This document shows, piece by piece, positions 29,398 to 64,000 of a stretch of 64,000 nt of DNA (the first letter of the stretch is position 1; the number at the start of each line of letters is the position of its first letter). The notes below the pieces were generated by a model. That model was given only the letters and a program-made list of their open reading frames with translations. It was not told where the DNA came from and searched no databases. Source of the stretch: Williamsia sp. (lineage in GTDB: Bacteria; Actinomycetota; Actinomycetes; Mycobacteriales; Mycobacteriaceae); assembly GCF_016462415.1 (NCBI RefSeq), contig NZ_JAEMTF010000003.1:28837-92836 (forward strand). Direction: 5' to 3'. The translations under genes and the position numbers were made by a program.

Positions 29398-30189
29398 CTA
29401 GTGCGTCGCCACGCTGATAGCGCGCATCTTCCGGTCGAACCGATTCGAAAATCGCCCATCTGTGTCTTCTGCAATTCCGATTAGCCAACGGCGATATCTC
29501 TGGTCATCGCGTTGTTGCACTGTCGCATCATCGAACGGCACTTCATCTAGCAGGTACGGCCCGAACGCCGTTTGCAGGAATCCGGGAACGGTCCGACCCG
29601 GCCCCCCGAAACGTTCCAGCACCTCAGTCGCATGGGCGGCGCTGAGCTTGTGCGCGAACCGAATCAGTGCGGTCGCGACGTCAGCATCTACCGCGGCGCT
29701 GGGCGTCAGTCTCTGGATGAGGGCCAAGCCTTCGCGCAGCACATCAGCGGGAACCTCAACATAATTAAAGTCAAGCGCATCAGGCGGCGTCACGGACTGA
29801 CTCGCACGCCCGACGTCGTCACTTGCGATCACGGATTCAGAGTCTGACGACGAGCCGAGCGGTCCTGACGGTACCGGGGGCCGGAGGTCAAGACAGCCTG
29901 CAGCAGAACCGCGCTGCCACTGTAAGGCCGTGTCTAAGCGCTCCAGAGTGCTCGGTCGAGGGAACGCGGTCGACGCGGTCGGGCTCTCGATTCGCGCCAT
30001 GGTCGAATCCGATGGGCCGCCTGCTCGGCGTAGAGCATCCCTGGTGAGACCAAGAGTCCGTCGCCGCTCAACGACCGCATCAGCGAGGAATGCCAGCTGC
30101 GGCGGTATCTGATCGGGCACGGGCCTGAGTTTATCGCCCCGAGCCACGCGTCTTGAGTCACCGAAGCTTGTGGGTCCTCTAACCGTCAT
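29398..30189 (-). CDS. XRE-like helix-turn-helix regulator with a long C-terminal domain
   Basis: HTH segment FLADAVVERRRTLGLTRDALRRAGGPSDSTMARIES. First gene of the four-gene operon, divergent from the transfer block. Confidence 0.65.
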   Translation of the reverse strand: MTVRGPTSFGDSRRVARGDKLRPVPDQIPPQLAFLADAVVERRRTLGLTRDALRRAGGPSDSTMARIESPTASTAFPRPSTLERLDTALQWQRGSAAGCLDLRPPVPSGPLGSSSDSESVIASDDVGRASQSVTPPDALDFNYVEVPADVLREGLALIQRLTPSAAVDADVATALIRFAHKLSAAHATEVLERFGGPGRTVPGFLQTAFGPYLLDEVPFDDATVQQRDDQRYRRWLIGIAEDTDGRFSNRFDRKMRAISVATH

Positions 30190-50152: not shown

Positions 50153-50789
50153 ACTCAGCAACGACGAGCTGGCCGACGTCACTCGCCGACAAGGCCATCA
50201 GATCGCCGCTCTCGAGGAAGAGGTACGCCGACTCAAGGAGTGGATCGGCACCGAGATCGGGCAGATGACCGACCGTGCCGACCAGTTCGGTGTCACCCCG
50301 GTACGCGGCGCGAGCCGCGGTGGCGGCGGTCCGTCGATCGCCCATCCGGGTACCGGGTTCGCCGCCGCGCATCTGCTGAACCTCGACACCAGCCCGCACA
50401 ACGACCGCGCTTCCGAGCCCACTGCACCCGACGTCGCTGGCCTACTGGCCGGCCACAACCGCACCTGGCTCACCGCTGTCGGCGGCGCCGAGGTCCTCGA
50501 CGCCTACCAATCGAGTCGAGCGGCCACCGACTCATCGGTGGCGGCAGAACCGTTGGCAGAGCACATCGGGCGACTCCTGCAGGACTACGGCGTCAACGTC
50601 GACGATCTCGCCGAGTTGCCGCCCGAGCAGGGCGCGGCACGGATCGACCAAGCAATCGCCGACACCGCCCGCCGCCGTAGCGGCTTTCCCGCACCGGCCA
50701 CATCGGTACTCAACCTCGACACCACCAGCACCGAGAAAGCGGCCAAGCAACGCGGTGGAGCCTACCGGTCACATGGGCACGAACGGTGA
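50145..50789 (+). CDS. hypothetical protein
   Basis: ORF 50118..50789 trimmed to ATG 50145 (MSELSNDELADV...), overlapping the previous stop. Coiled N-terminus. Confidence 0.5.
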   Translation: MSELSNDELADVTRRQGHQIAALEEEVRRLKEWIGTEIGQMTDRADQFGVTPVRGASRGGGGPSIAHPGTGFAAAHLLNLDTSPHNDRASEPTAPDVAGLLAGHNRTWLTAVGGAEVLDAYQSSRAATDSSVAAEPLAEHIGRLLQDYGVNVDDLAELPPEQGAARIDQAIADTARRRSGFPAPATSVLNLDTTSTEKAAKQRGGAYRSHGHER

Positions 50790-50799
50790 AAGGACCACC

Positions 50800-51130
50800 G
50801 TGACCGCCCCCGAGCCGCGCCCGCCGCTGAGTGCAGCCGGCCTGATCGAAATGCTTCAGCAGATCGCCCGAGCGAACTACGACCAGGCCGCAATCAACCA
50901 ATCCAGCAGCGATGGTGAGACATACGAACTCGTCGCCGACGTCATCACCCGAGCCATCCCGGCCGACTGGTCACGCTACGCACGCGACCTGCCGTCACCG
51001 AGGTGGCCGACCAAATCGGGGCATCGCTGTCCTCCCCAAGCGCGAGCTGACCGAACTCTCCCCAGCCCGCCACGCAATTGACTTGGCCCACCGCCAGATT
51101 CACTCCATGCGCGAAACGCATCGAATATGA
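50800..51130 (+). pseudogene. small hypothetical gene apparently broken by two 1-nt deletions
   Basis: GTG 50800 (AAAGGA upstream) opens ...GLIEMLQQIARANYDQAAI...SRYARDLP. Coding-like sequence then moves to a second frame (VTEVADQIG, from about 50994). It moves to a third frame after the G-run at 51018-51021 (IAVLPKRELTELSPARHAIDLAHRQIHSMRETHRI*, end 51130). Confidence 0.4.
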
Positions 51131-51161
51131 AGACGGCGCTGGCGCGGCACTCGAAACCCGC

Positions 51162-52511
51162 CTAGTGCAGCGCTCGGACAACTCCGTGGATCGCACGGTT
51201 GATCCAGGCGGCGTCGCAGACGGCGATACCGTCGATCGTTCCTTCGTAGACGCCGTGGTGATCACGTGCAGTGGCCGACCATGTTCCGGTGATGGCGGTC
51301 GCGTCGCAGTCTCTAGGCACTAGCAAAACAACCTCGCCGTTTGGCGAGGTCACTACGTCGCGTGGTCGAAGCTCGTTTAGCGAGATCGCGAGTTCGGCCG
51401 GTCCGTTGATGCGGAGACCACCGGGGGTCGGCGGCAGTACAGGGATCCGCGCTGCTTCAGGACGCTTAGTGATTGCGTAATTCGGAATGGGGATTGAGAA
51501 CGGTCTCGGACCGTAAGCCCTCGGCGGGGTGGGGATCAGTTTTGCGGCGTTGCTGACCGATCCTTGAGCCCTATGAGCTATTACGGGCTCGTTGAACCGC
51601 ACTGATACCCGAACTCCCTCCAGAAACGTGTCATTGAGGTTCGCGATGCGTAGGCGGAATGGCTGCCAGCAGGCCAGGATGTGTTCGATTACGTCCGGGA
51701 TGGCGTTCTTTGCGGCCGTGGCCCATTCGGCGACCTCGCCGAGATACTCGTCTCGGCTTCGAGGATCCGGCTCTTGTGAGAGCGCCGCGATGTTGGCCGG
51801 CGTGAAGATGTTGCTTCCGGCCATGCCGCGGTAGGAAGTTTGAGCCGACGCATCGGGAAGTGCACGCCTGAGCTGCGCGGCGGTTCGGTCGACATACATG
51901 GTGAGCGCAGCGTCGTCGTAGCCGCAGTGAAGGGCGTCGCCGTCGCCCGTCACAGCGATGCTCGCATCGAGCGGTGTCTTGCGCGTCCGGGCAATGAGCG
52001 CCCGGATTTCGCCACCCTTCGCACGACGTGTTGCTCCGTCAGTCCGAATGTAGATGTCGCCGTCGACCAACCCATCGGCCCCATCGCTATGGCACGTCGC
52101 TATGACTGTCGGCTCCGGAGGGGCGACAACGATGACAACGACATCTTTCCCGTCAAGCTGCACTCGCTGCACATCCCAATGCGGCCCGTTATCGCCAATA
52201 GCGGCTCGCACCGCATCGGCGAGCTGGTGCATCTCGAAGGGCTGCACCCCCACCACAGCGTTCGGCGCGATACCGAGAACCATGATCGCGTGCCCGTCCA
52301 GCCACGGCGCAGCCACGGCCGGATCGCGGTTCGATGCGCCGAGAATGAACTTCGCGACCTTGACCCGCCCACTCTTCTGCGTCAGCTCAATGTCTGACTT
52401 GAGCTCGAGGAAGTGCCGTTCGGCACGATCATCGGTGGCCACCAGGTGCTCGATGAGCGTGGTCCATCCCATCTGCCCTCTCGGCAGATGAGTGAAATCA
52501 GGGTTCGCCAC
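51162..52511 (-). CDS. AlbA_2 / Schlafen-like DNA-binding domain protein with an unknown C-terminal half
   Basis: The N-terminal ~190 aa fit the AlbA_2 pattern: ERHFLELKSDIE, VAKFILGASNRD, HAIMVLGIAPNAVVGV, KDVVVIVVAPPEP and GDIYIRTDGATRRAKGGEIRALI. Confidence 0.6.
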   Translation of the reverse strand: MANPDFTHLPRGQMGWTTLIEHLVATDDRAERHFLELKSDIELTQKSGRVKVAKFILGASNRDPAVAAPWLDGHAIMVLGIAPNAVVGVQPFEMHQLADAVRAAIGDNGPHWDVQRVQLDGKDVVVIVVAPPEPTVIATCHSDGADGLVDGDIYIRTDGATRRAKGGEIRALIARTRKTPLDASIAVTGDGDALHCGYDDAALTMYVDRTAAQLRRALPDASAQTSYRGMAGSNIFTPANIAALSQEPDPRSRDEYLGEVAEWATAAKNAIPDVIEHILACWQPFRLRIANLNDTFLEGVRVSVRFNEPVIAHRAQGSVSNAAKLIPTPPRAYGPRPFSIPIPNYAITKRPEAARIPVLPPTPGGLRINGPAELAISLNELRPRDVVTSPNGEVVLLVPRDCDATAITGTWSATARDHHGVYEGTIDGIAVCDAAWINRAIHGVVRALH

Positions 52512-52674
52512 GAATCAAGGGTGCCATCCACTTCAGACACCGGCGAGATCGCCCATGGTCTCACCGAACCGGGCGACGTTGACCGCTTTCGGGGTTCGGC
52601 GGGCAGAGGTCGGAGTGGACGTGACGTGCAGGGTGCGACGCTGGTACTCGGTCAGTGACCGAGCAGCGAGCGGG

Positions 52675-53895
52675 TCATGCGGAAGTCGAGGGCTTGGTGA
52701 TAACGACGGGAAGTATTGCCAGCGAGACGCGCCGCCCTTCTGCGTCGGCGGTGAAGACGTAGTCCACCAGCCGCGCCGGGTCGCCACCTTCGACGGTCTC
52801 TACGTACTTGGGGTGCGCTTCTGCCGCGGAGTGCAGCTTGTCGATGATGGCGACCGGGTCGGCGGCGCCGATGAACATCACCAGCGCCGCTTTGCTGTCG
52901 CGCCAGACCAGGTAACCGAGCAGCTGTGTGAGAGCATCGGTGGCGGTCTTTTGGCCGCGCCAGATCTTCAGCTCCGCGATGAAGGCGTTGCGGTCCTCAT
53001 GGCGGATGAGGATGTCGGTCTTGCCCTCCCCGTTGAACAGTTCGCCGCCAGCAGCTCCTTGCCAGTAGCTGTTGAGAGTCCCCAGCAGCAGATCGCGTAA
53101 CCCCTCCTCATCCAGTTTCCGTGTGGTGGCCGGGGACCGCTCAATGGTGTTTGCCCACGACCGCACGGCGTCCAGCGTGTCTCGGTACACCGCTTCTTCC
53201 AGGACGGGCTCGGCCACCACTCCGGCCTGTTCGCTCCGCTCTTTGAGGGAGACATGTTTACGTTTCGCCGGTACGGATGGTGGCCGCGGTGCGTCCAGCT
53301 TCCGTACGGGGATATTCAAGTCTGCGACGACCGCCCGGTCGTTCTCAATGCGCGAGCGGCGAGCGGCAACGACCTCACGGAGGCGTGTATCGGCGAGCCT
53401 TAGGAAGTCCCGCAGCTCGCTGTTTGCCCACTCAGCTCGTCGGATCATGTCGGCCCGCGCATCTTTGAGGCGGTCAGTAATGATCTCGCTCGTGAGTATC
53501 GGTGCGACTACCCGAACATCGAACTCGCGCCCGTTGACGGTGCCGATCTGAGGCTCGCCCGAGAAGTCGATGGTCCGCGCGCGGTGTGTCAGTAGCGAGA
53601 CGGTGCCGAGGATCGGATACGAGACAACGAACTGGCTGGCCCGCACTTGGCGCATCTCTCGCGTATGTCGGTCGGGCAGATGGAGGGTGGTTTCCTTCGT
53701 CGGACTCCTGGTCGCGTTCCCCCAGTCGAACGAGACCTCGACGGGCATGTGCTCGTCGAGCAACCTCGACACGAGCACGTCCGCGTCTTCTGCCAGGAGT
53801 GCATCTGGGTCCATTCGATCGACCTCAGTAATCGCAGTGTTGAGATGCGAGTGCAGATGGTTGCCGAGCTCCGAGCCCCCACCGAACGGGCTCAT
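52675..53895 (-). CDS. hypothetical protein with a C-terminal PD-(D/E)xK-like nuclease motif
   Basis: ORF 52675..54621 trimmed to ATG 53895 (MSPFGGGSELG...), which forms an ATGA overlap with the relaxase stop. The upstream 242 codons are an Arg-rich shadow of the relaxase gene. C-terminus: GEGKTDILIRHEDRNAFIAELKIWRGQKTATDALTQLLGYLVWRDSKAALVMF (D...E-x-K). Confidence 0.6.
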   Translation of the reverse strand: MSPFGGGSELGNHLHSHLNTAITEVDRMDPDALLAEDADVLVSRLLDEHMPVEVSFDWGNATRSPTKETTLHLPDRHTREMRQVRASQFVVSYPILGTVSLLTHRARTIDFSGEPQIGTVNGREFDVRVVAPILTSEIITDRLKDARADMIRRAEWANSELRDFLRLADTRLREVVAARRSRIENDRAVVADLNIPVRKLDAPRPPSVPAKRKHVSLKERSEQAGVVAEPVLEEAVYRDTLDAVRSWANTIERSPATTRKLDEEGLRDLLLGTLNSYWQGAAGGELFNGEGKTDILIRHEDRNAFIAELKIWRGQKTATDALTQLLGYLVWRDSKAALVMFIGAADPVAIIDKLHSAAEAHPKYVETVEGGDPARLVDYVFTADAEGRRVSLAILPVVITKPSTSA

Positions 53896-55553
53896 GAGCG
53901 CGGTCCGATCTCGCGTTCGGTGCCGCCACGGCGGCGGGCTGGTTCGGCGGGGGTGAGTGTGTTGGATACCGCCGATCCGGGTTCGCGGCGCGGCGCGGTC
54001 GGAGCGATCGGGAAGTCTCCACGAGCGCGCTCGACCGGGGACTGTTGCGCCGAGACAGGTGTGGCTGCGACGGCGGGGATCGCGTTGACGCGGTCCAGTT
54101 CCGACCGCGCCATTGCCGTCAGTGCTTGCGCGCGCTGGAGGTCGCCGGCCGCGCTGTGGGACGCTGCGATGGCGTCGACTGCGGCGAGGAGCTGACGGAT
54201 CAGGACGGTGTAGGCCAGGGTGCTGTTGGCGTGGGCGGTGGCGGTCATCAGGATCATCGCGACCCCACCGGCCGAGACCCGGCCTGCCTTCTTCGGCAAC
54301 GCACGGTGCGCCTGGATGCCCGCCGACCGCGACAGCGCGTCTGACGCGGCCGCGAGCGGGCCGGGTACCGGCTCGGTGCGCGCCGACCATGCGGCGAATA
54401 CCCCGGCGGTCTGTCCGGCAGCGCGTGCCCACGCGGCGCGATCGTCGGCGGGGATGGTCCGCAGGTACGCGGTCCACTTCTCCAGGTCGGCGTGCGCGGC
54501 GCGCAGCAGATCGGGTTGGGTGCCCTTGCGCCGGTTCGCGCCGCGCATCGCCGGTCGTCCGCGCTTCGCGCGCCGCCACTCGGCTGCGGCCTCCAGCGAC
54601 TGCTGCGGGGTATCGTCCCACTCGGCGCGCAGACGCGGCAGCGACAGATCCTTACCGAGCTGTCCTCCACCAAACCAGATGGGTTTGGCGTCGAAGTCGC
54701 GCGACCCGTCACTGTTCCTTGGGGCCTGGGCAACGGAGTAGCCAGTGACGACGTCTTCGCGACCGGCGGCGTACCGCGGCCGGATTAACAGGCCTTCGGC
54801 GCGCACCCGGCGCACAAAGTCGACCTCGGTTCGCGCGGACGTCGCGCACGCCCGCACACTGCGAGCCAACGCGACCCGCGACGGCTCGCTGTCGTTGCGG
54901 CCTTCGGTAGTCGCCACGCGGGCGGCCTTCTCCGCATCCGCGCGGGAGAAGCCACGCGAAACGATTCCGGCTGCGCGGCCCTCGGTGATCGTCAGGCCGT
55001 ACTTGAGTTCCAACTCCGCCGCGACTGACTGAGTCTTCTTCCAGTCGTTCCACAGCGCCACCTTGGTGCCATCCTCACGCACACAGGTCGCGGCGATGTG
55101 GATGTGGTCATTCCCGGCGGCCGACTTTCCGTGATGAATCGCAACCCACCGCGCGGGCGACAGCCCTTCCTCGGCGAAGCCCATCTCGCGCATGAAGTCG
55201 GTAGCGATCTCGCCCCACTCGGTATCGGAAACAACCCGGTCGTCGGCTCTCAGGGACAACGAGCAGTGCCACACGTGTGCATCTCGCACGCCATCGGTGA
55301 GCCACTTTAAGTCGTCGCCCATAACTCGTTTCGGCACGGTCACCTCGGTGCCGAAAACGCGTCGAGGATGTTCCAACTTCCGCGCGATGTCGCGAGCCTC
55401 GAGCGCCGAGAGTTCTGCGTCGTCGTGCCACGCCATGATCGCGGGATCACCGCCAACGAGGTGCGGAGTCTCGTGTTCGTTGGCCTTGCCCGGTCCGACG
55501 AGGTAGCGCAGTAAGCCGGCCATCGTTGCGCCACGCGTCACGTTCGGGATCAT
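53892..55553 (-). CDS. relaxase / mobilisation nuclease (MobA-VirD2-type domain)
   Basis: ORF 53892..55760 trimmed to ATG 55553 (MIPNVTRGATMAGLLRYLVGPGK...). It has the VWHCSLSL block and the histidine triad region HHGKSAAGNDHIHIAAT. The long C-terminal region is helical. Confidence 0.85.
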   Translation of the reverse strand: MIPNVTRGATMAGLLRYLVGPGKANEHETPHLVGGDPAIMAWHDDAELSALEARDIARKLEHPRRVFGTEVTVPKRVMGDDLKWLTDGVRDAHVWHCSLSLRADDRVVSDTEWGEIATDFMREMGFAEEGLSPARWVAIHHGKSAAGNDHIHIAATCVREDGTKVALWNDWKKTQSVAAELELKYGLTITEGRAAGIVSRGFSRADAEKAARVATTEGRNDSEPSRVALARSVRACATSARTEVDFVRRVRAEGLLIRPRYAAGREDVVTGYSVAQAPRNSDGSRDFDAKPIWFGGGQLGKDLSLPRLRAEWDDTPQQSLEAAAEWRRAKRGRPAMRGANRRKGTQPDLLRAAHADLEKWTAYLRTIPADDRAAWARAAGQTAGVFAAWSARTEPVPGPLAAASDALSRSAGIQAHRALPKKAGRVSAGGVAMILMTATAHANSTLAYTVLIRQLLAAVDAIAASHSAAGDLQRAQALTAMARSELDRVNAIPAVAATPVSAQQSPVERARGDFPIAPTAPRREPGSAVSNTLTPAEPARRRGGTEREIGPRS

Positions 55554-55639
55554 TGCGCGGCGATCCGATTGGCTACTCGGCGCCGTGCGCTCGCTGGCGG
55601 TGGGTGGACGTCGATCGGTGCCATCCTCGTCCCCTCTTC

Positions 55640-55740
55640 GGCCCAGCGCAGCGACCCCACATCGTGGGGACTCACACCAAAAGTGTGAAAGATGCCCCAG
55701 CGCAGCGCAAGTGGCATCTCGACTTAGGGCACCTAAGTCC
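55640..55740. other. candidate oriT
   Basis: About 90-190 nt upstream of the relaxase start there are three hairpins. They are CCCCAC-atc-GTGGGG (55655-55669), AGATGCC-n16-GGCATCT (55690-55719) and ACTTAGG-gca-CCTAAGT (55722-55738). There is also a direct repeat CCAGCGCAGCG (55643-55653 and 55697-55707). Confidence 0.4.
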
Positions 55741-55783
55741 ATAGCTTGCTCCCTCGGCATAGCGGGATACTGTCCAATTCAGT

Positions 55784-56728
55784 GTGAGCGTTGCGAACTC
55801 CGTTATGCACGCGCTTCGCGCGCAAGGCTCTACGACAGGAGGACCCGTGACCAAAGGCAACAAGCGCCAACGACGCCAACACCGGAAAGCCAAGGAGCGG
55901 GGCCCATTCATCCCGTCGCAAGAGGACAAATTCATCTCCGTGGACACCGGCCCCCTGTGCTTCTTCAACAAGATCACCGGCACGTTCACGAGTGATGGCG
56001 GCAAAACGCTGACGGTCAAAAGCATCCCCGTCGAGGACACCATTCGCCCGGTCCCCATGAAGTTCAACCCACCGCTGCAGTCCGACGGGACGGACCCAAC
56101 GTGCTTCGATTATCAGTGGCAACAACTCACGTATCTGTTCAACTTTGACGACCCAGCAACATTCGTGAGTGTCGTGGATGCGCTGATTGACGAGGAGAGA
56201 GCGCTCCTCCTCCGCTACGTCACAACATGTCGAAACCTGGCCGGCTACACCATCCTCAACGACAAGCCCGGCTTCCACCTCTCGTGGAAGCGCAGGGGTA
56301 GCGCTACGGTCCGAGCGGACCTACCCAGCCACCAGGAATTCACCGGATTCTCTGCAACGTTCCGGCAGCTCCATAACGATGGCGAGGAGGCCAGCTTCGT
56401 CAAAGTCTGGAACATCATCAACCGTGCCCTCAACGACGCTGGACTCGATGCGACTGCTCTCGCAGATGCACATGAAACGCTCAAGGCATGGAAGAAAGCG
56501 CGCGCCAGGCTCAAGGAGAAAGCTGATCAAGAACTTCAACTACGGCGACACTCTGCACTGGGGCAACACACGTGAGCAGCTGGCGGAGCTCACAAATGAT
56601 CCCTTCACGCCAACTTCTACAAGTTCTGTTGCACCACAACAATGGCCTCGCTGGGCCACCTGTACTTCGGCTTCGCCGTCCTGGCGGCCGCAGCGCTAGG
56701 CGTCCCCGAGCTCGGTCAAAAGACGTAG
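55784..56728 (+). pseudogene. hypothetical gene with two compensating frameshifts
   Basis: ORF 55784..56575 ends ...ARLKEKADQELQ... After the A-run at 56519-56521 the coding-like sequence continues in the next frame (KLIKNFNYGDTLHWGNTREQLAELTNDPF). It returns to the first frame near 56606 (HANFYKFCCTTTMASLGHLYFGFAVLAAAALGVPELGQKT*, stop 56726-56728). The start is ambiguous (GTG 55784, ATG 55805 or GTG 55847). Confidence 0.5.
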
Positions 56729-57423: not shown

Positions 57424-60400
57424 TTACCGGTCCAGGCCGGCGTCGAGGCGCCGACCCCGGTCTTTGCCACATCCAAGTCCGCGTCCCTCGTCGGTGGAAA
57501 CACGGCGTGTGAGTGCGCCGGTGGCCGGCGCCGGGAAGTCGCCAACGAGGGCGATAGTCTCTGAATGCTCTTCCGCCCATTCCCGCGCCTGGTGCTCGTG
57601 CTTGCGACGCATAACGGTCACGTACTCGTCTTTGCTCATCCCCTCCGATGCCGCAGTGAACTCGGTCGGGTTGAGATCCAGGCTCCACCCGGGTTGGCGA
57701 CCTTGCTCACCCATGCGCGCCGCTGCTTCGGCGCGCTTGGCGACCGCGCCAGCAGAGTTCTCGGCCTGCTGAATCTCGAGGCACAGCGACGCCAGCTCGA
57801 CCTTGATATGCGCCAGCTCATCGGCGCGCGAAAACGGTGTATCCATGCGCGGCGCCTGCAGCGCCACTTCACGTCGCCATCCGTTGAGCTTGGTCTCCAG
57901 ACGCGCCGGCACATCGATCAGTGATTCGTGGGAGTTCTCCAACCGCGTCGCCAGACCGTTGGCCAGCGCCGCCTTCGACTGCCCGGTATCGGCACGCTGA
58001 CCGGCGTCATCGACCTTGCCCCACAGCTGTTCGCGGGTGACATAGAACTGAGGACGGCCCGGAACGTCAAGCCACACGTACAGCTCGTCGTTGAGCGACG
58101 CGCGCGCCGCCTTCGCCACGACACCGGTGTCGAACTCCGCGAGAGTCACCGAGATGGACATACCCCGGCCCTTCAACTCCACGAAAGAGGCTCGCGCTCG
58201 CTCGAGCAGGTCGGCCGAGCGGTCCTTGCGCTCGAGTGCGCAACACCCTTCGATGGAGAATGTCTTGCCGGCGTCGAGCCACTGCGCCACCTTGTCGGCC
58301 AAGTCCGAAGCGGTGCCCTGCATTGCCTCGGTCTTCTCGATCTCGCGGTCGTTGTTGCGGACAACAGAGCGCGCGTGGTTGCGGCCGTCGGTGTGCGCAT
58401 CTGACAACGCCGATAGGCTCGCGACGTCGGAGTCAAGCTGCGCCATCCGCATGTAGCGGGGGTCGCCGGTCGCGGCTGCCTTCGTCGCGGCTGCCGCGTC
58501 GGCGAGGTTGTCATCGGCGATGTCGGCGACCTGGGTCACCTCGTCGCCGAGTTGCCCGGTCTTGGCCTGCTGGATGAACGCCGCTTTCGACTCCACCGTC
58601 GCCCACATCACGGTGTCGGTGGTCGACTCGGTGACGTAGTTGAAGATCTGGACCTCGGGGTTCTGATTGCCCTGGCGCAACATTCGACCCTCACGCTGTT
58701 CCAGGTCCGCCGGGCGCCAAGGCACGTCCATGTGGTGCAGCGCGACCATCCGCGCCTGCACGTTGAGCCCGGTGCCCATTTTCGGAGTCGACCCGACCAG
58801 GACCGCAATCTTGCCCGACCGGCAGTCGGCCTGCATCGCCAATTTCTGCGATGGCGATTTCGCGTCATGGATGAACACGACCGCCTCGGCGGGGACCCCG
58901 GCATCGACCACCATGTCCTTGAGGTTCTGATAGACCGACCGCGCTCCGGGTTTCGGTGTGCCGCGATCGCAAAACACCAACTGCAACCCGCCACGGCGCG
59001 GCGACGGAGTGCCGTCCTCGGTGCGGTACCGGTTGTCTTTGGTGTCGTGATAAATCGTCGCGACCTGCTCGGCGACGGCGTCGGCGCGGGTGTTGCCCGG
59101 ATCGGGTGCGAGGTTGGCCAGCATCGGATCGATCGCGACGTTGCGGCCGTCGTTGATGACTTTCAAGATGTTGTCGGTCGCCATCTCCCGCGGATCAAAG
59201 TTCGACATCCGGTATTCGAGGTCGGTGATGAAATCGCGACGCTCCTGCCCCGGAGTGGAAGTTATGACCTGGCGGCCTTCGAAACTCGGCAACGCCGCGG
59301 GCACCTGGTCGCGGGTGACGACGTCGGTGTACTGCGCGGCCATCGCGAACATCTCTTTCGGGTTCGAGAACGCCGCCACCTTCGACACCACCATGATCCG
59401 GGTGCCGGTCGCGTTGGTGACCGTCTCCGACTTCGTCGCGGTGAACGACGCCGCCCAGTCGGTGATCGAGCGAACTCCCGCCACCTCCAACACATCAGGA
59501 CGCAGGTACTGCTGCATCACCCACGCCTCGGCCAACGAGTTCGCGATCGGCGTACCGGTCGCGAACGTCGCCACTCGCTCCGCGCCCGGGGTGATCACCC
59601 GGCCCGCAGCGCGGGCTTCGTTCTGTCGTCGGCTGCGCAGATAATCGAGCTTCATGGACAGGTCCTCCGCCTTGTCCGACCCCTTGGGCAACGCCAACGT
59701 CGCCACCGCGCACTGCCGTGACTTGTTTTTGAAGTCGTGCGCCTCGTCGATGAACAGGTAGTCCGCGCCGGTCTGCTCGAACGTCACCCCCGCGTCCTTT
59801 TTCGCCTGCTCGGTCGCCGCCTCCAACTTCTTGCTCAGCGCCTTCTTCGCCTTCTCGATCCGCTTGACCGTGGCGTCACTCTGCCCGCCGGCCGCACGCC
59901 CTGCCGTCATCTCCTCGTCCAATTCGGCAACCTGGGCGCGGATATAGGCGACCCGCTGATCAGGATGCACCCGGATCTTTTCGAACACCGACGACGGGAT
60001 GATCACCATGTCCCAGTCCGACGTCGCGGTCTGCGCCGCGAACACCCGCCGATCCTCGGCGTCCATCCCCTTGGCCCCGACCAACACATTCGCCGCCGGA
60101 TACCACTGCTTGAGCTCCCGGCCGAACTGCTCGATCAGATGCGTCGGCACGACAATCCAAGGCTGCGAGACCAGGCCGCGGCGTTTAAGTTCCATCGCGG
60201 CCATGAACATTGTTCCGGTCTTGCCCGCGCCCACGACGTGGTCCAGGAGCACAGTCGGCTCGGCGGTCACCCGGGCCACCGCATCGCGCTGATACCGGTG
60301 TGGGGTGAACACCGGAGACAGACCGGGCAGGTCCAGGCGGCTGCCGTCATGTGACGGTTTGACCCACGTGTTGAACCTGTTGTTCCACTCGGTCACCAGC

Positions 60401-63249
60401 CGTTCTCGGCGGTCGTCGTCGGACCACACCCACGTCCGGAACTCGCCGGCAATCTTCTCCGCCTGGACCTGGGCGTAGACGGTGGCCTTTGTGTCGACTG
60501 CCGGGGCTCCCTCCTCGACCGCGCCCTTGGAGTTGCGGACCTCGATGGGGCGTTGGTTCATCAACCTGTCGAGCAGCTCGACTGCTGACATCGACTTGTG
60601 GCTGTCCGCGTTGTCGGCGCCGTAGTCCACCCGCATCGATTGGGTGTTGAGCTGACCCGCGGGCACCGACACCATCCACGTACCGGCGGCACGTTCCACC
60701 GTCGCCTGCTGCGCATCGAAGGTCTCGCGGACGAACTGTGCGTAGTCATGCGGCGCGATCCAGGTCGCACCCAACGCCACCGGACCCATCTGCGACGGCT
60801 GTTTGAGTGGCGGCACCACCTCGGCCAGTGCCGCCTCCACCTCCCGCCAGTCCTGGGTCGGGGTGTCCTGCACCTGAGTGACGGCCGTGGCGTGTTTGGC
60901 GCGCACATTGCCCGACAGGGCCGTCGAGCACGGCAGCAACTCACTCGGGTTGTCGACGTCGATGAACACCAACCCGCGCACCGATTCCCGCGTGGTGTCG
61001 CTGTCTTGGCCCAAGAGACTGGCAATTCGGTCGAGGTCGATGCGGCCGCGTTCTCCCATGCAGATCGCGACCGCGTCTTCCGGTGTGTCGGCCGACAGCA
61101 CCGGGACCGGGGCGACAACGACGTCGCGGGCGAACACTGCGGTCTTCGACACCGCCCCGGTTTCCTCGTCGAACCGCTCCAGCGCCATCACCCCGGCGAT
61201 CCCCGGATCACTGGTGACCGCCTCGAGGTGGGTTTGGCGTTTCACTCTCGGCGAGGACTGCCACGCCTTCTCTTCCAGCTCGCCGAGAACCTTTTCCGGT
61301 AGCTCGCCGAGGAACGAGACACCATCATCGTCGCGGTTGTCCTCGCGCCACTTCGTCTCCGCGACCGCCAGGCGGGCCATCGCTTCGTGTTCGCTGCGTT
61401 CCTTGCCGCCCGACCACTTCATCCGATTGATCGGTCCGTAGGCGGCGACGTAGGCGTCGTAGGTCGTGCCCAGGTCGCGACGCAGGCCTTCGCGGTGCGC
61501 CGCGGTGGTGTCGTCGGTGCGCTGAGATGCGATGACCTGTTCGGTCAGGTTGCGCAGCCGCAGCAGATGCCGGGTCTCAGTGGTCCGGGTCTTGGGGACC
61601 TTGATCGGGTCGACCCCGTCGATTCCCTTGCGCACGAACCCCTGTGAGTCCTCATCCCACTCCACGCGTCCGATCGGGACGTCCTCGCCGTAGAGGCCCG
61701 CCGCGGTGGCCACGCCCGCCTCCAGCGTCGCCGCGACAGACTCGGCCTGCACAGGGTGCGGACTGTAGGTCAGCCGGATCGTGGGACGGTCCACGAGCAT
61801 CTCCGAGATCGCCTCGGCTTTGCGTGCCGACGCGATGATCGAGGCGAGGGATTCCCGCACCGCAGTCGCCGTGTCGCGGTCCGGATCGACCTCGACGCGC
61901 ATCTGTCCACCCCGGTACATGCCGTGATCGGCGACGGTCGTGCCCAACACGTGCCGAGGGGTGCGCTCGAAGTAGCCGTTGACATCCACCGTCCGAGTGC
62001 CCCCGTTCTGACGATCGGCGACCTCCACTTTCACCGTGCGCAACCAATTCGGGTTCTGCTCAGGCAACGGGGCACCGAGTTCACGTTTGCGCAGCACCAG
62101 GATGTCGGTGACGACCTGGGTGCCCGCGACCCGACTGAAGGCGTTCGACGGCAACCGGACCGCGCCGACCAGATCGCCGAGCGCGTGCATGTCGCGGCGC
62201 GCTTTATCGTTCGCGGCATCCAAGGTGCCCGAGGTGGTGACGGCCATGACGTAGCCACCGGGCGCGGTCAGCCGGAGCGCCTTGATCAGGAAGTGATTGT
62301 GGATGTTGTGCTGCGCCGGGTTGTGGATCGGGTCGTGCACCGAGAACCCGCCGAACGGGACGTTGCCGATCGTCGCCGAAAACGTGTTCTCCGGGACACG
62401 GGTCGACTCGAACCCCTCGTTGCGGACCTGGGCGTTTGGGTAGAGCAGGTGCGCGATCTGGGCGGTCATCGGATCGTTCTCGACGCCGATCATCGTCGCC
62501 GAGGCGGGCGCCACCCCCATGAATGTGCCGCTGCCACAACCCGGTTCCAGCACGTAGCCACCGTCGAACCCTGCCTCGACGAGGGTGTCCCACATCGCGG
62601 CCGCGATCGCGGGATCGGTGTAGTGGGCGTTGAGTGTCGATGCTTTCGCATCCCGGTACTGCTCGGCGGTCAAGTACTCCTCACGCAACGCGCGGCGCGG
62701 AGTGTCCCACTCCTGCTTGGACTCATCGAAGATGTCGGACACCGCGCCCCACCCCGACCACTGGGACAACACCCGCTGCTCATCAGGCAGGGCAGCGCGG
62801 TTGAGGGTGTCGCAGCGCAGCACCACGTCGATCGCCGACATGTTCGCCTGCGCGCGAGCTTTGGCCCCTGAGGGCACCAGTACCTGCCCCGAATGGACGA
62901 ACGGCACCGCCGGAACCGGAGCTAACGGTGTCGGCGGTGCCACATCAACCGTGTGCGCAGCGGCGGTTGACTCGTCAGCGACGTCGTCGATCGGGTCGGG
63001 CTCCAGGCCCGCCACGACGTTGTCGGCCTTGACGTTTACGATCGACCCGTCCGGGCGGATTGCCGGGGTGGTGCGCACGCTCGACCACTGCGATAGCGGG
63101 ACACCCCGCTCCGATTGATCGACCTTCGGCAGAGTGTCGCGGTCGGCAGGCAACGGCGGCAGTACCGTGCCACCGGGGTCGATGACCGCTGGATCGGTCG
63201 GCAGACGCAGCTCGTCGACCGACTCGAACAGCAGTCCCTGCTCGGCTAG
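57424..63249 (-). CDS. giant N6-adenine DNA methyltransferase + SNF2/DEAD-like helicase fusion (P1 DarB-like); 5' end unresolved
   Basis: MTase motif I YVLEPGCGSGTF (about 62523-62560) and motif IV GNVPFGG (about 62347-62370). Helicase motif I GAGKTG (about 60215-60234), motif II FIDEAHDF (about 59731-59754) and motif VI QREGRMLRQGN (about 58667-58700). The ORF track extends to 63951, but those first 234 codons are a G/R/D-rich shadow of a better ORF in another frame. The first canonical in-frame starts are TTG 63153 and GTG 63078. Confidence 0.85.
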   Translation of the reverse strand, partial: LAEQGLLFESVDELRLPTDPAVIDPGGTVLPPLPADRDTLPKVDQSERGVPLSQWSSVRTTPAIRPDGSIVNVKADNVVAGLEPDPIDDVADESTAAAHTVDVAPPTPLAPVPAVPFVHSGQVLVPSGAKARAQANMSAIDVVLRCDTLNRAALPDEQRVLSQWSGWGAVSDIFDESKQEWDTPRRALREEYLTAEQYRDAKASTLNAHYTDPAIAAAMWDTLVEAGFDGGYVLEPGCGSGTFMGVAPASATMIGVENDPMTAQIAHLLYPNAQVRNEGFESTRVPENTFSATIGNVPFGGFSVHDPIHNPAQHNIHNHFLIKALRLTAPGGYVMAVTTSGTLDAANDKARRDMHALGDLVGAVRLPSNAFSRVAGTQVVTDILVLRKRELGAPLPEQNPNWLRTVKVEVADRQNGGTRTVDVNGYFERTPRHVLGTTVADHGMYRGGQMRVEVDPDRDTATAVRESLASIIASARKAEAISEMLVDRPTIRLTYSPHPVQAESVAATLEAGVATAAGLYGEDVPIGRVEWDEDSQGFVRKGIDGVDPIKVPKTRTTETRHLLRLRNLTEQVIASQRTDDTTAAHREGLRRDLGTTYDAYVAAYGPINRMKWSGGKERSEHEAMARLAVAETKWREDNRDDDGVSFLGELPEKVLGELEEKAWQSSPRVKRQTHLEAVTSDPGIAGVMALERFDEETGAVSKTAVFARDVVVAPVPVLSADTPEDAVAICMGERGRIDLDRIASLLGQDSDTTRESVRGLVFIDVDNPSELLPCSTALSGNVRAKHATAVTQVQDTPTQDWREVEAALAEVVPPLKQPSQMGPVALGATWIAPHDYAQFVRETFDAQQATVERAAGTWMVSVPAGQLNTQSMRVDYGADNADSHKSMSAVELLDRLMNQRPIEVRNSKGAVEEGAPAVDTKATVYAQVQAEKIAGEFRTWVWSDDDRRERLVTEWNNRFNTWVKPSHDGSRLDLPGLSPVFTPHRYQRDAVARVTAEPTVLLDHVVGAGKTGTMFMAAMELKRRGLVSQPWIVVPTHLIEQFGRELKQWYPAANVLVGAKGMDAEDRRVFAAQTATSDWDMVIIPSSVFEKIRVHPDQRVAYIRAQVAELDEEMTAGRAAGGQSDATVKRIEKAKKALSKKLEAATEQAKKDAGVTFEQTGADYLFIDEAHDFKNKSRQCAVATLALPKGSDKAEDLSMKLDYLRSRRQNEARAAGRVITPGAERVATFATGTPIANSLAEAWVMQQYLRPDVLEVAGVRSITDWAASFTATKSETVTNATGTRIMVVSKVAAFSNPKEMFAMAAQYTDVVTRDQVPAALPSFEGRQVITSTPGQERRDFITDLEYRMSNFDPREMATDNILKVINDGRNVAIDPMLANLAPDPGNTRADAVAEQVATIYHDTKDNRYRTEDGTPSPRRGGLQLVFCDRGTPKPGARSVYQNLKDMVVDAGVPAEAVVFIHDAKSPSQKLAMQADCRSGKIAVLVGSTPKMGTGLNVQARMVALHHMDVPWRPADLEQREGRMLRQGNQNPEVQIFNYVTESTTDTVMWATVESKAAFIQQAKTGQLGDEVTQVADIADDNLADAAAATKAAATGDPRYMRMAQLDSDVASLSALSDAHTDGRNHARSVVRNNDREIEKTEAMQGTASDLADKVAQWLDAGKTFSIEGCCALERKDRSADLLERARASFVELKGRGMSISVTLAEFDTGVVAKAARASLNDELYVWLDVPGRPQFYVTREQLWGKVDDAGQRADTGQSKAALANGLATRLENSHESLIDVPARLETKLNGWRREVALQAPRMDTPFSRADELAHIKVELASLCLEIQQAENSAGAVAKRAEAAARMGEQGRQPGWSLDLNPTEFTAASEGMSKDEYVTVMRRKHEHQAREWAEEHSETIALVGDFPAPATGALTRRVSTDEGRGLGCGKDRGRRLDAGLDR

Positions 63250-63827
63250 AGGCTCGGCTTGAGTCCGTGCTCGGCGAGAGCGGCGTTGCTGCGGGCCATC
63301 TCCTGCTCGACCGCCACCGCCAACTCCCCCGCCAGTGGATCGTCCGGGCCGACCGGCAGCGCCAGGCCGTCCTCCGCGCGCGCCGCGAGAAGCAGCTCCG
63401 CGGTCACCTGAAAGGCCGGCGTCCGATCCGGCCACACCATCTCCACCACCTGCTCGGTCTCGCGGTCCGGCTCGGTCCCGGCCTCGGTCGTCCACCGGTC
63501 CATCGCCGCCACCGGTATCGGTGTCTCGCTCGAGGGCTCGGGCTCCGCGTCGTCCGGATCCTGGTAGCCCTCCCACAGCTGATGGGTCACCCACTCGATC
63601 GCCGCCAACCGTGTCTGGTTGATCAACCCCAGCCGTTCCATGTAATCCGGTTCTCGACCCATCGCCGATGTCCAGGCCGCGATCGTCGGTCCCTGGTTGT
63701 CGGTCTGGAATTGCGACGCCTGTACTTCCAGCTCCTGCGTCTTCGCGGCCACCCAATCCTCGAAGCTGGCCCGATCCATCTCGGCCAGCTCTTGGGCGTA
63801 ACGCTGCACTATCTGCTCGCGGATCAT
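63246..63827 (-). CDS. hypothetical protein (193 aa), or the detached N-terminal part of the giant methylase-helicase
   Basis: ORF 63246..63917 trimmed to ATG 63827, which has AGGAGGAG 7 nt upstream. It has strong third-position G/C bias and a globular composition (MIREQIVQRYAQELAEMDRASFEDWVAAKTQELEVQ...). Confidence 0.65.
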   Translation of the reverse strand: MIREQIVQRYAQELAEMDRASFEDWVAAKTQELEVQASQFQTDNQGPTIAAWTSAMGREPDYMERLGLINQTRLAAIEWVTHQLWEGYQDPDDAEPEPSSETPIPVAAMDRWTTEAGTEPDRETEQVVEMVWPDRTPAFQVTAELLLAARAEDGLALPVGPDDPLAGELAVAVEQEMARSNAALAEHGLKPSL

Positions 63828-64000
63828 CGGCGGTCTCCTCCTGGTCAAGAGCGAATAGATCGAACTGGTCATCATCACGTGATGTAGCCACTGGTCGTGT
63901 CTCCCTGGTAAATGCACCAGACGACCCGCGCATTACGACAACGCGCCACACGAGCCGCCTGGCTCCTAACCGGGATTCACAGTCCGCCTACCGCAAATAC

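Follow-up and report, generated by a model that had tools for sequence, protein, structure and literature searches.

Two candidate immunity nucleases, one of them coupled to a relaxase gene, as probable independent cargo of a Williamsia conjugative element

When a relaxase gene runs directly into two genes with nuclease-type domains, do those genes form a two-gene defence or exclusion cassette, or do they simply share a position? The question is raised by a stretch of 64,000 nucleotides from Williamsia sp. (RefSeq assembly GCF_016462415.1, contig NZ_JAEMTF010000003.1, positions 28,837 to 92,836 of the forward strand), which in its full length is called the window here. Within it, a relaxase gene is followed on the minus strand by a gene for a 406-residue protein (gene B) and then by a gene for a 449-residue protein (gene C). 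An earlier note, made from the letters of the sequence, took genes B and C as one candidate cassette. The analysis described here points, with moderate confidence, to a different answer: two candidate immunity nucleases, each a single gene and functionally independent of the other, which ride as cargo in a variable region with its start exactly at the relaxase stop codon. The features on which the argument turns are the following.

53892-55553, minus strand: relaxase (MOB, MobA/VirD2-like), Pfam PF03432; start placed by alignment to relatives
53892-53895, minus strand: ATGA stop/start overlap of the relaxase TGA with the gene B ATG, read directly
52675-53895, minus strand: gene B, 406 aa, ATG start, assigned to the PDC-S54 family (PADLOC PDLC05036)
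53311-53895, minus strand: N-terminal domain of gene B, residues 1-195, from the AlphaFold (AF2) model
52678-53208, minus strand: C-terminal PD-(D/E)xK nuclease-like domain of gene B, residues 230-406, from invariant residues and predicted secondary structure
52912-53043, minus strand: putative catalytic core of gene B (E285, D294, E308, K310, Q324, Y328)
52512-52674: gap of 163 bp between gene B and gene C
51162-52511, minus strand: gene C, 449 aa, GTG start, Schlafen/AlbA_2-like with a C-terminal beta-sandwich
52020-52421, minus strand: Schlafen/AlbA_2-like domain of gene C, residues 31-164 (PF04326, below the gathering threshold)
52398-52421, minus strand: putative triad of gene C, E31-x4-E36-x-K38
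51216-51659, minus strand: C-terminal beta-sandwich (Ig-like) of gene C, residues ~285-432, from AF2 strands
51112-52671: replaceable cargo segment, gene C with the 163-bp upstream region, from blastn against the sister element L081

The layout itself is as the earlier note had described it. The ATGA overlap, the open reading frames (ORFs) of 406 and 449 aa, the 163-bp gap and the D...ExK motif are all present on reading the sequence, and the string GKTDILIRH...FIAELKIW...QLLGYL...ALVMF is found in the 406-aa translation. Genes B and C are real genes: homologues are numerous for gene B and number 36, besides itself, for gene C; the N-terminus of gene C aligns with the starts of its homologues, in agreement with the GTG start. 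The open frame of the relaxase reaches 55760 and matches Pfam Relaxase PF03432 with E 2.6e-13 (50.8 bits against a gathering threshold of 24.6), together with sub-threshold matches to NCBIfam TraI_MobP_relax and MobB. Two related elements, L081 and L089, encode relaxases of 553 aa that share 91% identity with it, and residue 1 of these falls at 55553 in the alignment. Since these relatives start at the equivalent position, the relaxase probably starts at 55553 (553 aa) and not at 55760.

Comparison with the sister elements bears on the question. L081, a 15-kb metagenomic contig that holds the closest relative of gene B (86% identical), carries in order a NikA/MobC gene, the relaxase, gene B with a 4-bp overlap, an N6_N4 methyltransferase and a ResIII helicase, the last two of which score as type III restriction-modification (R-M; MTase_III E 4.6e-103, REase_III E 2.9e-8). 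By blastn, L081 2906-5806 matches window 55569-52672 at 87%, and L081 10531-15450 matches window 51111-46178 at 86%; the 4.7 kb between them, L081 5807-10530 with the type III R-M genes, has no match in the window. Because backbone homology to L081 resumes on both sides, window 51112-52671 is a replaceable block. L089 and L090 likewise keep the NikA-relaxase-gene B arrangement, with gene B 57% identical, and have four small ORFs in the gene C position. In L089 (3493-5872) these ORFs of 77, 269, 154 and 211 aa, at the position of gene C and of the type III R-M genes, are matched by nothing in Pfam or PADLOC and may represent additional defence or anti-defence cargo. When the sequences on either side of the gene C cassette were searched for repeats or att-like sites, only short chance matches came up.

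Nor do the two families travel together elsewhere. A survey of 80 representative-genome loci of gene B, with neighbours taken within 10 kb, contains no gene C homologue (tblastn), and homologues of gene B are likewise absent from all five distinct contexts of gene C. The two genes are unrelated and independently mobile, and so the adjacency of B and C would be an accident of a cargo hotspot, not the mark of a two-gene system. The earlier note's two-gene cassette therefore falls, since in sister elements the gene C slot holds type III R-M genes or the four ORFs and co-occurrence is 0/80 and 0/5. Its broader point, that both proteins are of types recurring in defence, is borne out: gene B combines an invariant PD-(D/E)xK core with the PDC-S54 match, and gene C combines a predicted Schlafen signature with homologue neighbours such as GmrSD, Kiwa, SIR2_2, Vsr and ResIII.

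Gene B matches the PADLOC hidden Markov model (HMM) for PDC-S54, PDLC05036, over its full length (E 4.6e-96, 320.8 bits), with residues 8-400 aligned to profile positions 11-407 of 410, and the L089 allele matches the same model with E 1.2e-99. By this HMM criterion gene B is assigned to the candidate family PDC-S54. PDC systems are 145 'phage defence candidates', predicted by 'guilt-by-embedding', on the ground that one member or more lies inside BREX, DISARM or type I R-M (bioRxiv 10.1101/2024.01.29.577857). Neither the literature searched nor the supplementary files of the Payne et al. preprint contain the name PDC-S54 itself. PADLOC, run on both proteins as the earlier note had suggested, thus gives a match for gene B, and PADLOC v2 holds no model that matches gene C; the note's remark that it did not recognise the pairing as a named system needs amending for gene B, already catalogued as a candidate, and holds for the rest. 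Gene B resembles PDC-S54 in its end-to-end HMM match and as a single gene of ~400 aa without a conserved partner. It differs in being coupled to a relaxase on a conjugative element: in the window it lies between the relaxase and gene C, with no BREX, DISARM or type I R-M locus enclosing it. Relatives of gene B adjoin type III R-M or N6_N4 MTase genes, again without being embedded.

The gene B family is very widespread. A word-indexed search finds at least 442 homologues, with the 100% match on a 108-kb Williamsia sp. contig, and an exhaustive profile search finds 4269 clusters at 50% identity with E<=1e-3, or 1839 with E<=1e-30, nearly all of them ~400 aa and matched over both domains. The family is represented in Actinomycetota, Planctomycetota and Proteobacteria as well as in further phyla, and one member is assigned to an archaeal metagenome-assembled genome. 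Pfam has no family model that matches gene B, and 30 homologues give no consistent family. FG-GAP, NucS_C and others were rejected as single, insignificant Pfam matches (NucS_C E 0.11).

In an all-against-all blastp of 642 neighbour proteins from 75 of the gene B loci, no conserved partner emerges; the largest cluster is present at 6 of the 75 loci, at variable positions. Gene B thus appears to be a single-gene system in a mostly solitary family. Its neighbours at these loci are rich in integrases, resolvases and helix-turn-helix (HTH) proteins, and scattered among them are HmaA, DrmD, BrxH, type IIG R-M, PD-T4-6 and ShosA. One further homologue adjoins an N6_N4 methyltransferase, and others lie on mycobacterial chromosomes. 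A relaxase like that of the window is found at none of the 80 loci (tblastn), and relaxases are not among the recurrent neighbour families listed.

Some individual settings are worth recording. In Rhodococcus sp. NM-2 (L094 3097-11184), a gene B homologue directly follows the type IV coupling protein (T4CP) and DUF4913 genes of another conjugative element and points towards an Abi_2 gene, a helicase gene and an integrase gene in convergent orientation. This locus is a second, relaxase-independent link of the family to actinobacterial conjugative elements. On Corynebacterium deserti pCdes2 (L091 6219-8182), the end of a YfbU-family gene overlaps the start of a gene B homologue by 1 bp, in an accessory region with recombinases, the antitoxin of a toxin-antitoxin system and IS3; the YfbU protein has no PADLOC match. 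At the mycobacterial loci L015, L016, L018 and L095-L097, a gene of ~210-230 aa lies 3' of the gene B homologue on the same strand, and the proteins from L015, L016 and L018 cluster together by blastp. This mycobacterial arrangement may be a lineage-specific two-gene variant of PDC-S54.

What kind of protein is gene B? In an alignment of 30 homologues, E285, D294, E308, K310, Q324 and Y328 are invariant, the last four as E308-x-K310 and Q324xxxY328. The AF2 model (mean predicted local distance difference test, pLDDT, of 81.7) places in the C-terminal domain a helix at 263-277, strands at 282-287, 293-299 and 302-311, a helix at 315-328 and a strand at 334-342. This alpha-beta-beta-beta-alpha-beta order is that of PD-(D/E)xK nucleases, and D294 falls on the second strand (293-299), E308 and K310 on the third (302-311). 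The best Foldseek match in the PDB is NucC (6p7p_A; E 0.039, probability 0.92, template modelling (TM) scores 0.23/0.36). Gene B is linked to NucC and other restriction-endonuclease-like effectors by this best fold match, the D...ExK core and the predicted order of elements; it differs from NucC in the weakness of the match, an additional N-terminal domain of ~195 aa, a QxxxY motif that presumably recalls RecB/Cas4-type nucleases more, and the lack of a cyclic-nucleotide signalling partner nearby. Foldseek against viral structures gave nothing below E 0.02 and no coherent theme.

The N-terminal domain (residues 1-195) is modelled as helices, a beta-sheet and a 58-residue helix, with pLDDT mostly >90, and is followed by a disordered linker (residues 198-212); it has no Pfam or PDB match. 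A nucleotidyltransferase (NTase) identity was suggested by Foldseek matches to Pol beta, OAS and Cid1, all short and mostly of low probability, and was rejected because the domain has no conserved DxD or GS motif. Mean pairwise identity among the homologues rises from 42.5% in the N-domain to 65.7% in the C-domain and 73.9% in the nuclease core. A divergent N-domain joined to a conserved C-domain is what one would expect if a module for recognition or regulation had been fused to a conserved effector, and the N-domain is presumed to be a sensor or oligomerisation module. Shedu is built on this plan, a variable N-terminal sensor fused to a PD-(D/E)xK nuclease, and gene B (compared with SduA, DUF4263) shares with it the divergent N-terminal domain and the conserved C-terminal nuclease in one polypeptide. 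As a member of Shedu, gene B fails every test applied: DUF4263 is matched at E<=1 by none of the 30 alignment members, which otherwise have no PDDEXK Pfam match except the single NucS_C, and there is no Shedu structure among the best 50 Foldseek matches.

The position of gene B behind the relaxase is not a peculiarity of the window. Gene B is the first gene after the relaxase in all three related elements, always with a 4-bp stop/start overlap (ATGA in the window, GTGA in L081 and L089), so the relaxase coupling that the earlier note had pointed out is real and conserved in this element lineage. The overlap would couple translation of gene B to that of the relaxase. Between L081 and L089, most backbone proteins are 92-98% identical (relaxase 95.8%, T4CP 97.7%; two small ORFs ~84%) and gene B is 56.6% identical. 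Synonymous divergence (dS) is 0.20-0.35 in the backbone and 1.36 in gene B, and the ratio of nonsynonymous to synonymous divergence (dN/dS) is 0.05-0.07 in the backbone and ~0.3 in gene B. Nucleotide identity falls from ~92% to ~50% in a 60-nt interval that contains the relaxase stop; therefore, the variable region begins exactly at the gene B start codon. Within the nuclease domain identity climbs back in part, to 65-77%, and beyond the gene B stop it disappears. By these comparisons, recombination introduced a divergent allele of gene B and left the coupled position intact; gene B is under purifying selection yet turns over as alleles. Such turnover is typical of conflict genes and is also compatible with specificity determinants. 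Like other defence or cargo hotspots of mobile elements, the locus has a fixed position, conserved flanking backbone and differing defence genes in its sisters; it differs from them in starting exactly at the relaxase stop, with a relaxase-coupled PDC-S54 allele always as its first gene.

Gene C belongs to a small family, with 37 matches including itself and a best non-self identity of 39%. In 33 sequences, E31, E36, K38, N61, R62, G73, G80, W112, P132, G151 and R156 are invariant within the N-terminal ~165 residues, and six of these 33 reach the AlbA_2 profile PF04326 at E<=0.01 (best E 2e-7). The putative E31-x4-E36-x-K38 triad has the same spacing and chemistry as E17-x4-D22-x-K24 of CbCash, a CRISPR-associated Schlafen that is a tRNA endonuclease switched on by cyclic tetra-adenylate (cA4), with the triad E17-D22-K24 (Nat Commun 2026, PMC13462974). 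In the AF2 model (pLDDT 87.5) the N-domain is alpha/beta, the middle of the protein is helical and the C-terminus forms a beta-sandwich with strands at 285-432. The C-terminal half has no Pfam match, and the sandwich is presumed to be a regulatory or sensor domain. Prokaryotic Schlafens with uncharacterised C-terminal domains ('cluster 4') have been described near R-M systems (PMC13462974). Gene C resembles these and Cash in its Schlafen/AlbA_2-like N-domain, its E-x4-E-x-K arrangement, its uncharacterised C-terminus and the R-M or defence genes near it. It differs from Cash in having a C-terminal beta-sandwich, no Csx15/CARF sensor and a weak sequence link. No cas genes or type III CRISPR are found in the window neighbourhood or in the five gene C contexts; because it has neither a CARF/Csx15 domain nor a CRISPR neighbourhood, gene C is not taken to be Cash.

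The five contexts comprise a conjugative element with GmrSD_C, a transposase/integrase region, a locus with SIR2_2, Vsr and ResIII, a locus with GmrSD, and one with Kiwa, SIR2_2 and DUF4062. Homologues of gene C thus appear to be solitary and to lie in defence islands or mobile elements. One of them (L087 3566-8563) sits in a dense defence island with KwaA/KwaB, SIR2_2 and DUF4062, beside an RHS/YD-repeat protein. A tblastn search of plasmids finds proteins that share the N-domain alone, named 'ATP-binding' or 'RNA-binding domain-containing protein', and the N-domain is therefore a shuffled module. The G+C content at third codon positions (GC3) is 0.70 in gene C and 0.78-0.85 in the backbone.

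In the mechanism proposed for the two genes, nuclease activity, substrates, triggers and protective phenotype are all putative. The fast-diverging N-domain of gene B, with its long helix, would sense a trigger and/or drive oligomerisation, and would license the PD-(D/E)xK domain to cut invader DNA or, in an abortive infection, host DNA. Because of its translational coupling to the relaxase, gene B is expected to be co-expressed with the mobilisation operon. The E-x4-E-x-K centre of gene C, by analogy with CbCash and mammalian SLFNs, would cleave tRNA or other RNA, with the C-terminal beta-sandwich relieving autoinhibition and thereby leading to translation shutdown in infected cells.

Several observations weigh against the reading of these genes as immunity cargo. 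The defence role of both families is a candidate one, predicted from sequence and context, and for PDC systems it is a prediction by the authors' own statement (bioRxiv 10.1101/2024.01.29.577857). Many neighbours of gene B homologues are housekeeping or metabolic genes, and the defence association of the neighbourhood is qualitative, without an enrichment control. Structural support for a nuclease fold in gene B is weak. The whole-chain predicted TM score (pTM) of the gene B model is 0.47, and when the profile of gene B is run against the sequences of solved structures, only a chance beta-lactamase match appears (E 0.92). In the Foldseek comparison that the earlier note had called for, no PDB match of gene B falls below E 1e-3, NucC included; for gene C, all PDB matches lie on the beta-sandwich (TTHA1873 with E 4.9e-4, RhoGDI, transglutaminase barrels), and no Schlafen (SLFN or Cash) structure is among the best 50. 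In a profile search of PDB sequences with gene C, CbCash (9ylu) comes first with a weak E of 0.13. The AlbA_2 domain that the note had assigned to gene C stands as a match to nearly the whole PF04326 profile (positions 1-117 of 118), at a score below gathering (E 2e-4, 22.2 bits against 25.3) and weaker than had been implied. Finally, the persistent coupling of gene B to the relaxase is the one feature that a pure 'random cargo' account leaves unexplained.

How do the alternatives fare against the same evidence? That genes B and C work together as a single system of two components for defence or exclusion, in which C might be the sensor or binder and B the effector, would suit two neighbours on the same strand, 163 bp apart, both with nuclease-type domains common in defence systems; it is nonetheless extremely unlikely, since neither family accompanies the other in the loci surveyed, the sister elements keep gene B and have other genes in the gene C slot, the family sizes differ ~100-fold and the cassette boundary falls between the two genes. 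The coupling also invites the idea, raised in the earlier note, that gene B is a conjugation accessory and not an immunity gene, such as a relaxosome nuclease that processes oriT or the T-strand. The 4-bp coupling is kept in three elements even after allele replacement, and another homologue directly follows T4CP-DUF4913 in the Rhodococcus conjugative element. However, the family is overwhelmingly found without relaxases: it comprises >4000 clusters across many phyla, and a window-like relaxase was absent from all 80 loci, with relaxases missing from the recurrent neighbour families listed. An essential transfer factor would also be expected to co-evolve with its relaxase, and here a 96%-identical relaxase goes with a 57%-identical gene B. 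A role as relaxosome accessory is thus very unlikely.

Another alternative is competition between elements. If gene B were a nuclease of the exclusion or incompatibility type, directed at related elements as they enter and destroying them, its allele diversity would be specificity, in keeping with a divergent allele swapped exactly at the start codon into a near-identical backbone, with a variable part that is the putative N-terminal recognition domain, with expression coupled to the mob operon and with the recurrence of gene B on conjugative elements. There is, however, no evidence of self/non-self marking, membrane and entry-exclusion features are lacking, family members are common at chromosomal sites far from conjugation genes, and allele turnover is equally typical of anti-phage genes; this possibility is considered unlikely. 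A related and speculative idea, to which only a small chance is given, makes the coupling itself functional: gene B would be made whenever the mobilisation operon is expressed, and the exchanged N-domain would pick the foreign DNA to be attacked, which might belong to competing conjugative elements or to phages taking advantage of cells in conjugation. It is likewise improbable that one of the two genes, or both, has nothing to do with defence, gene C being a non-catalytic AlbA_2-type DNA/RNA-binding regulator and/or gene B a degenerate or housekeeping repair nuclease. The Prokaryotic Genome Annotation Pipeline (PGAP) does name relatives of gene C 'ATP-binding protein' or 'RNA-binding domain-containing protein', its AlbA_2 score does not reach the gathering threshold, catalysis is missing from several SLFN proteins (PMC13462974) and many gene B neighbours are housekeeping genes. 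Yet the acidic and lysine residues are invariant in both families, their occurrence is patchy and linked to mobile elements and defence islands, and gene B is under purifying selection despite its allele turnover. Two independent candidate immunity nucleases, as cargo behind the relaxase stop codon, remain the preferred reading.

The surroundings identify the element that carries this cargo. Among the products of the window's right half are an SLT/NlpC-P60 hydrolase, a coupling protein of the TraG/VirD4 type, a DUF4913 protein, a glutaredoxin/DUF2742 protein and the relaxase, and the element is an actinobacterial (Williamsia) conjugative plasmid or integrative and conjugative element (ICE) of the type IV secretion system (T4SS) type. 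No near-identical plasmid to window positions 51000-56000 is present in PLSDB (megablast). A 2175-aa ORF at 57424-63951 on the minus strand combines a methyltransferase-like region at residues ~434-623 (PADLOC mad2/MTase_II) with an SNF2/ResIII helicase region at ~1216-1840, and its C-terminal part is 81% conserved in L081. G+C content steps up near 30000, from ~0.59-0.62 over 1-30 kb to ~0.65-0.69 over 30-64 kb of the window; this step may mark where the conjugative element begins on the left. In L081 and L089 the relaxase is preceded by a NikA-like/MobC accessory gene, of which the window has no homologue (tblastn). Where L081 2530-2925 and L089 134-529 encode this accessory gene, the window (55554-56300) instead has the relaxase frame open for 69 extra codons upstream, and the mobilisation module of the window may be rearranged or defective. 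A promoter scan of 50700-56400 found no sigma-70-like promoter, the sigma-70 model being uninformative for an actinobacterium, and a terminator scan of the same interval, equally uninformative for such an organism, found two terminator-like sites, fewer than expected by chance.

Current concepts are not overturned by this locus. The family to which gene B is assigned is very large and has neither a Pfam model nor a solved structure, PADLOC being the only catalogue found to include it. Three related conjugative elements, two of them near-isogenic, with divergent gene B alleles offer a clean natural test series for PDC-S54 and its N-domain. Were the coupling to the relaxase functional, gene B would be an allele-specific arms-race locus hard-wired to the relaxase. 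Gene C would add a compact stand-alone architecture, a Schlafen domain with a beta-sandwich, to the prokaryotic Schlafen tRNases. Finally, the locus is a record of a hotspot for cargo and defence genes in conjugative elements of actinobacteria, with its beginning exactly at the stop codon of the relaxase, and this position can guide the search for additional cargo like the four ORFs of L089.

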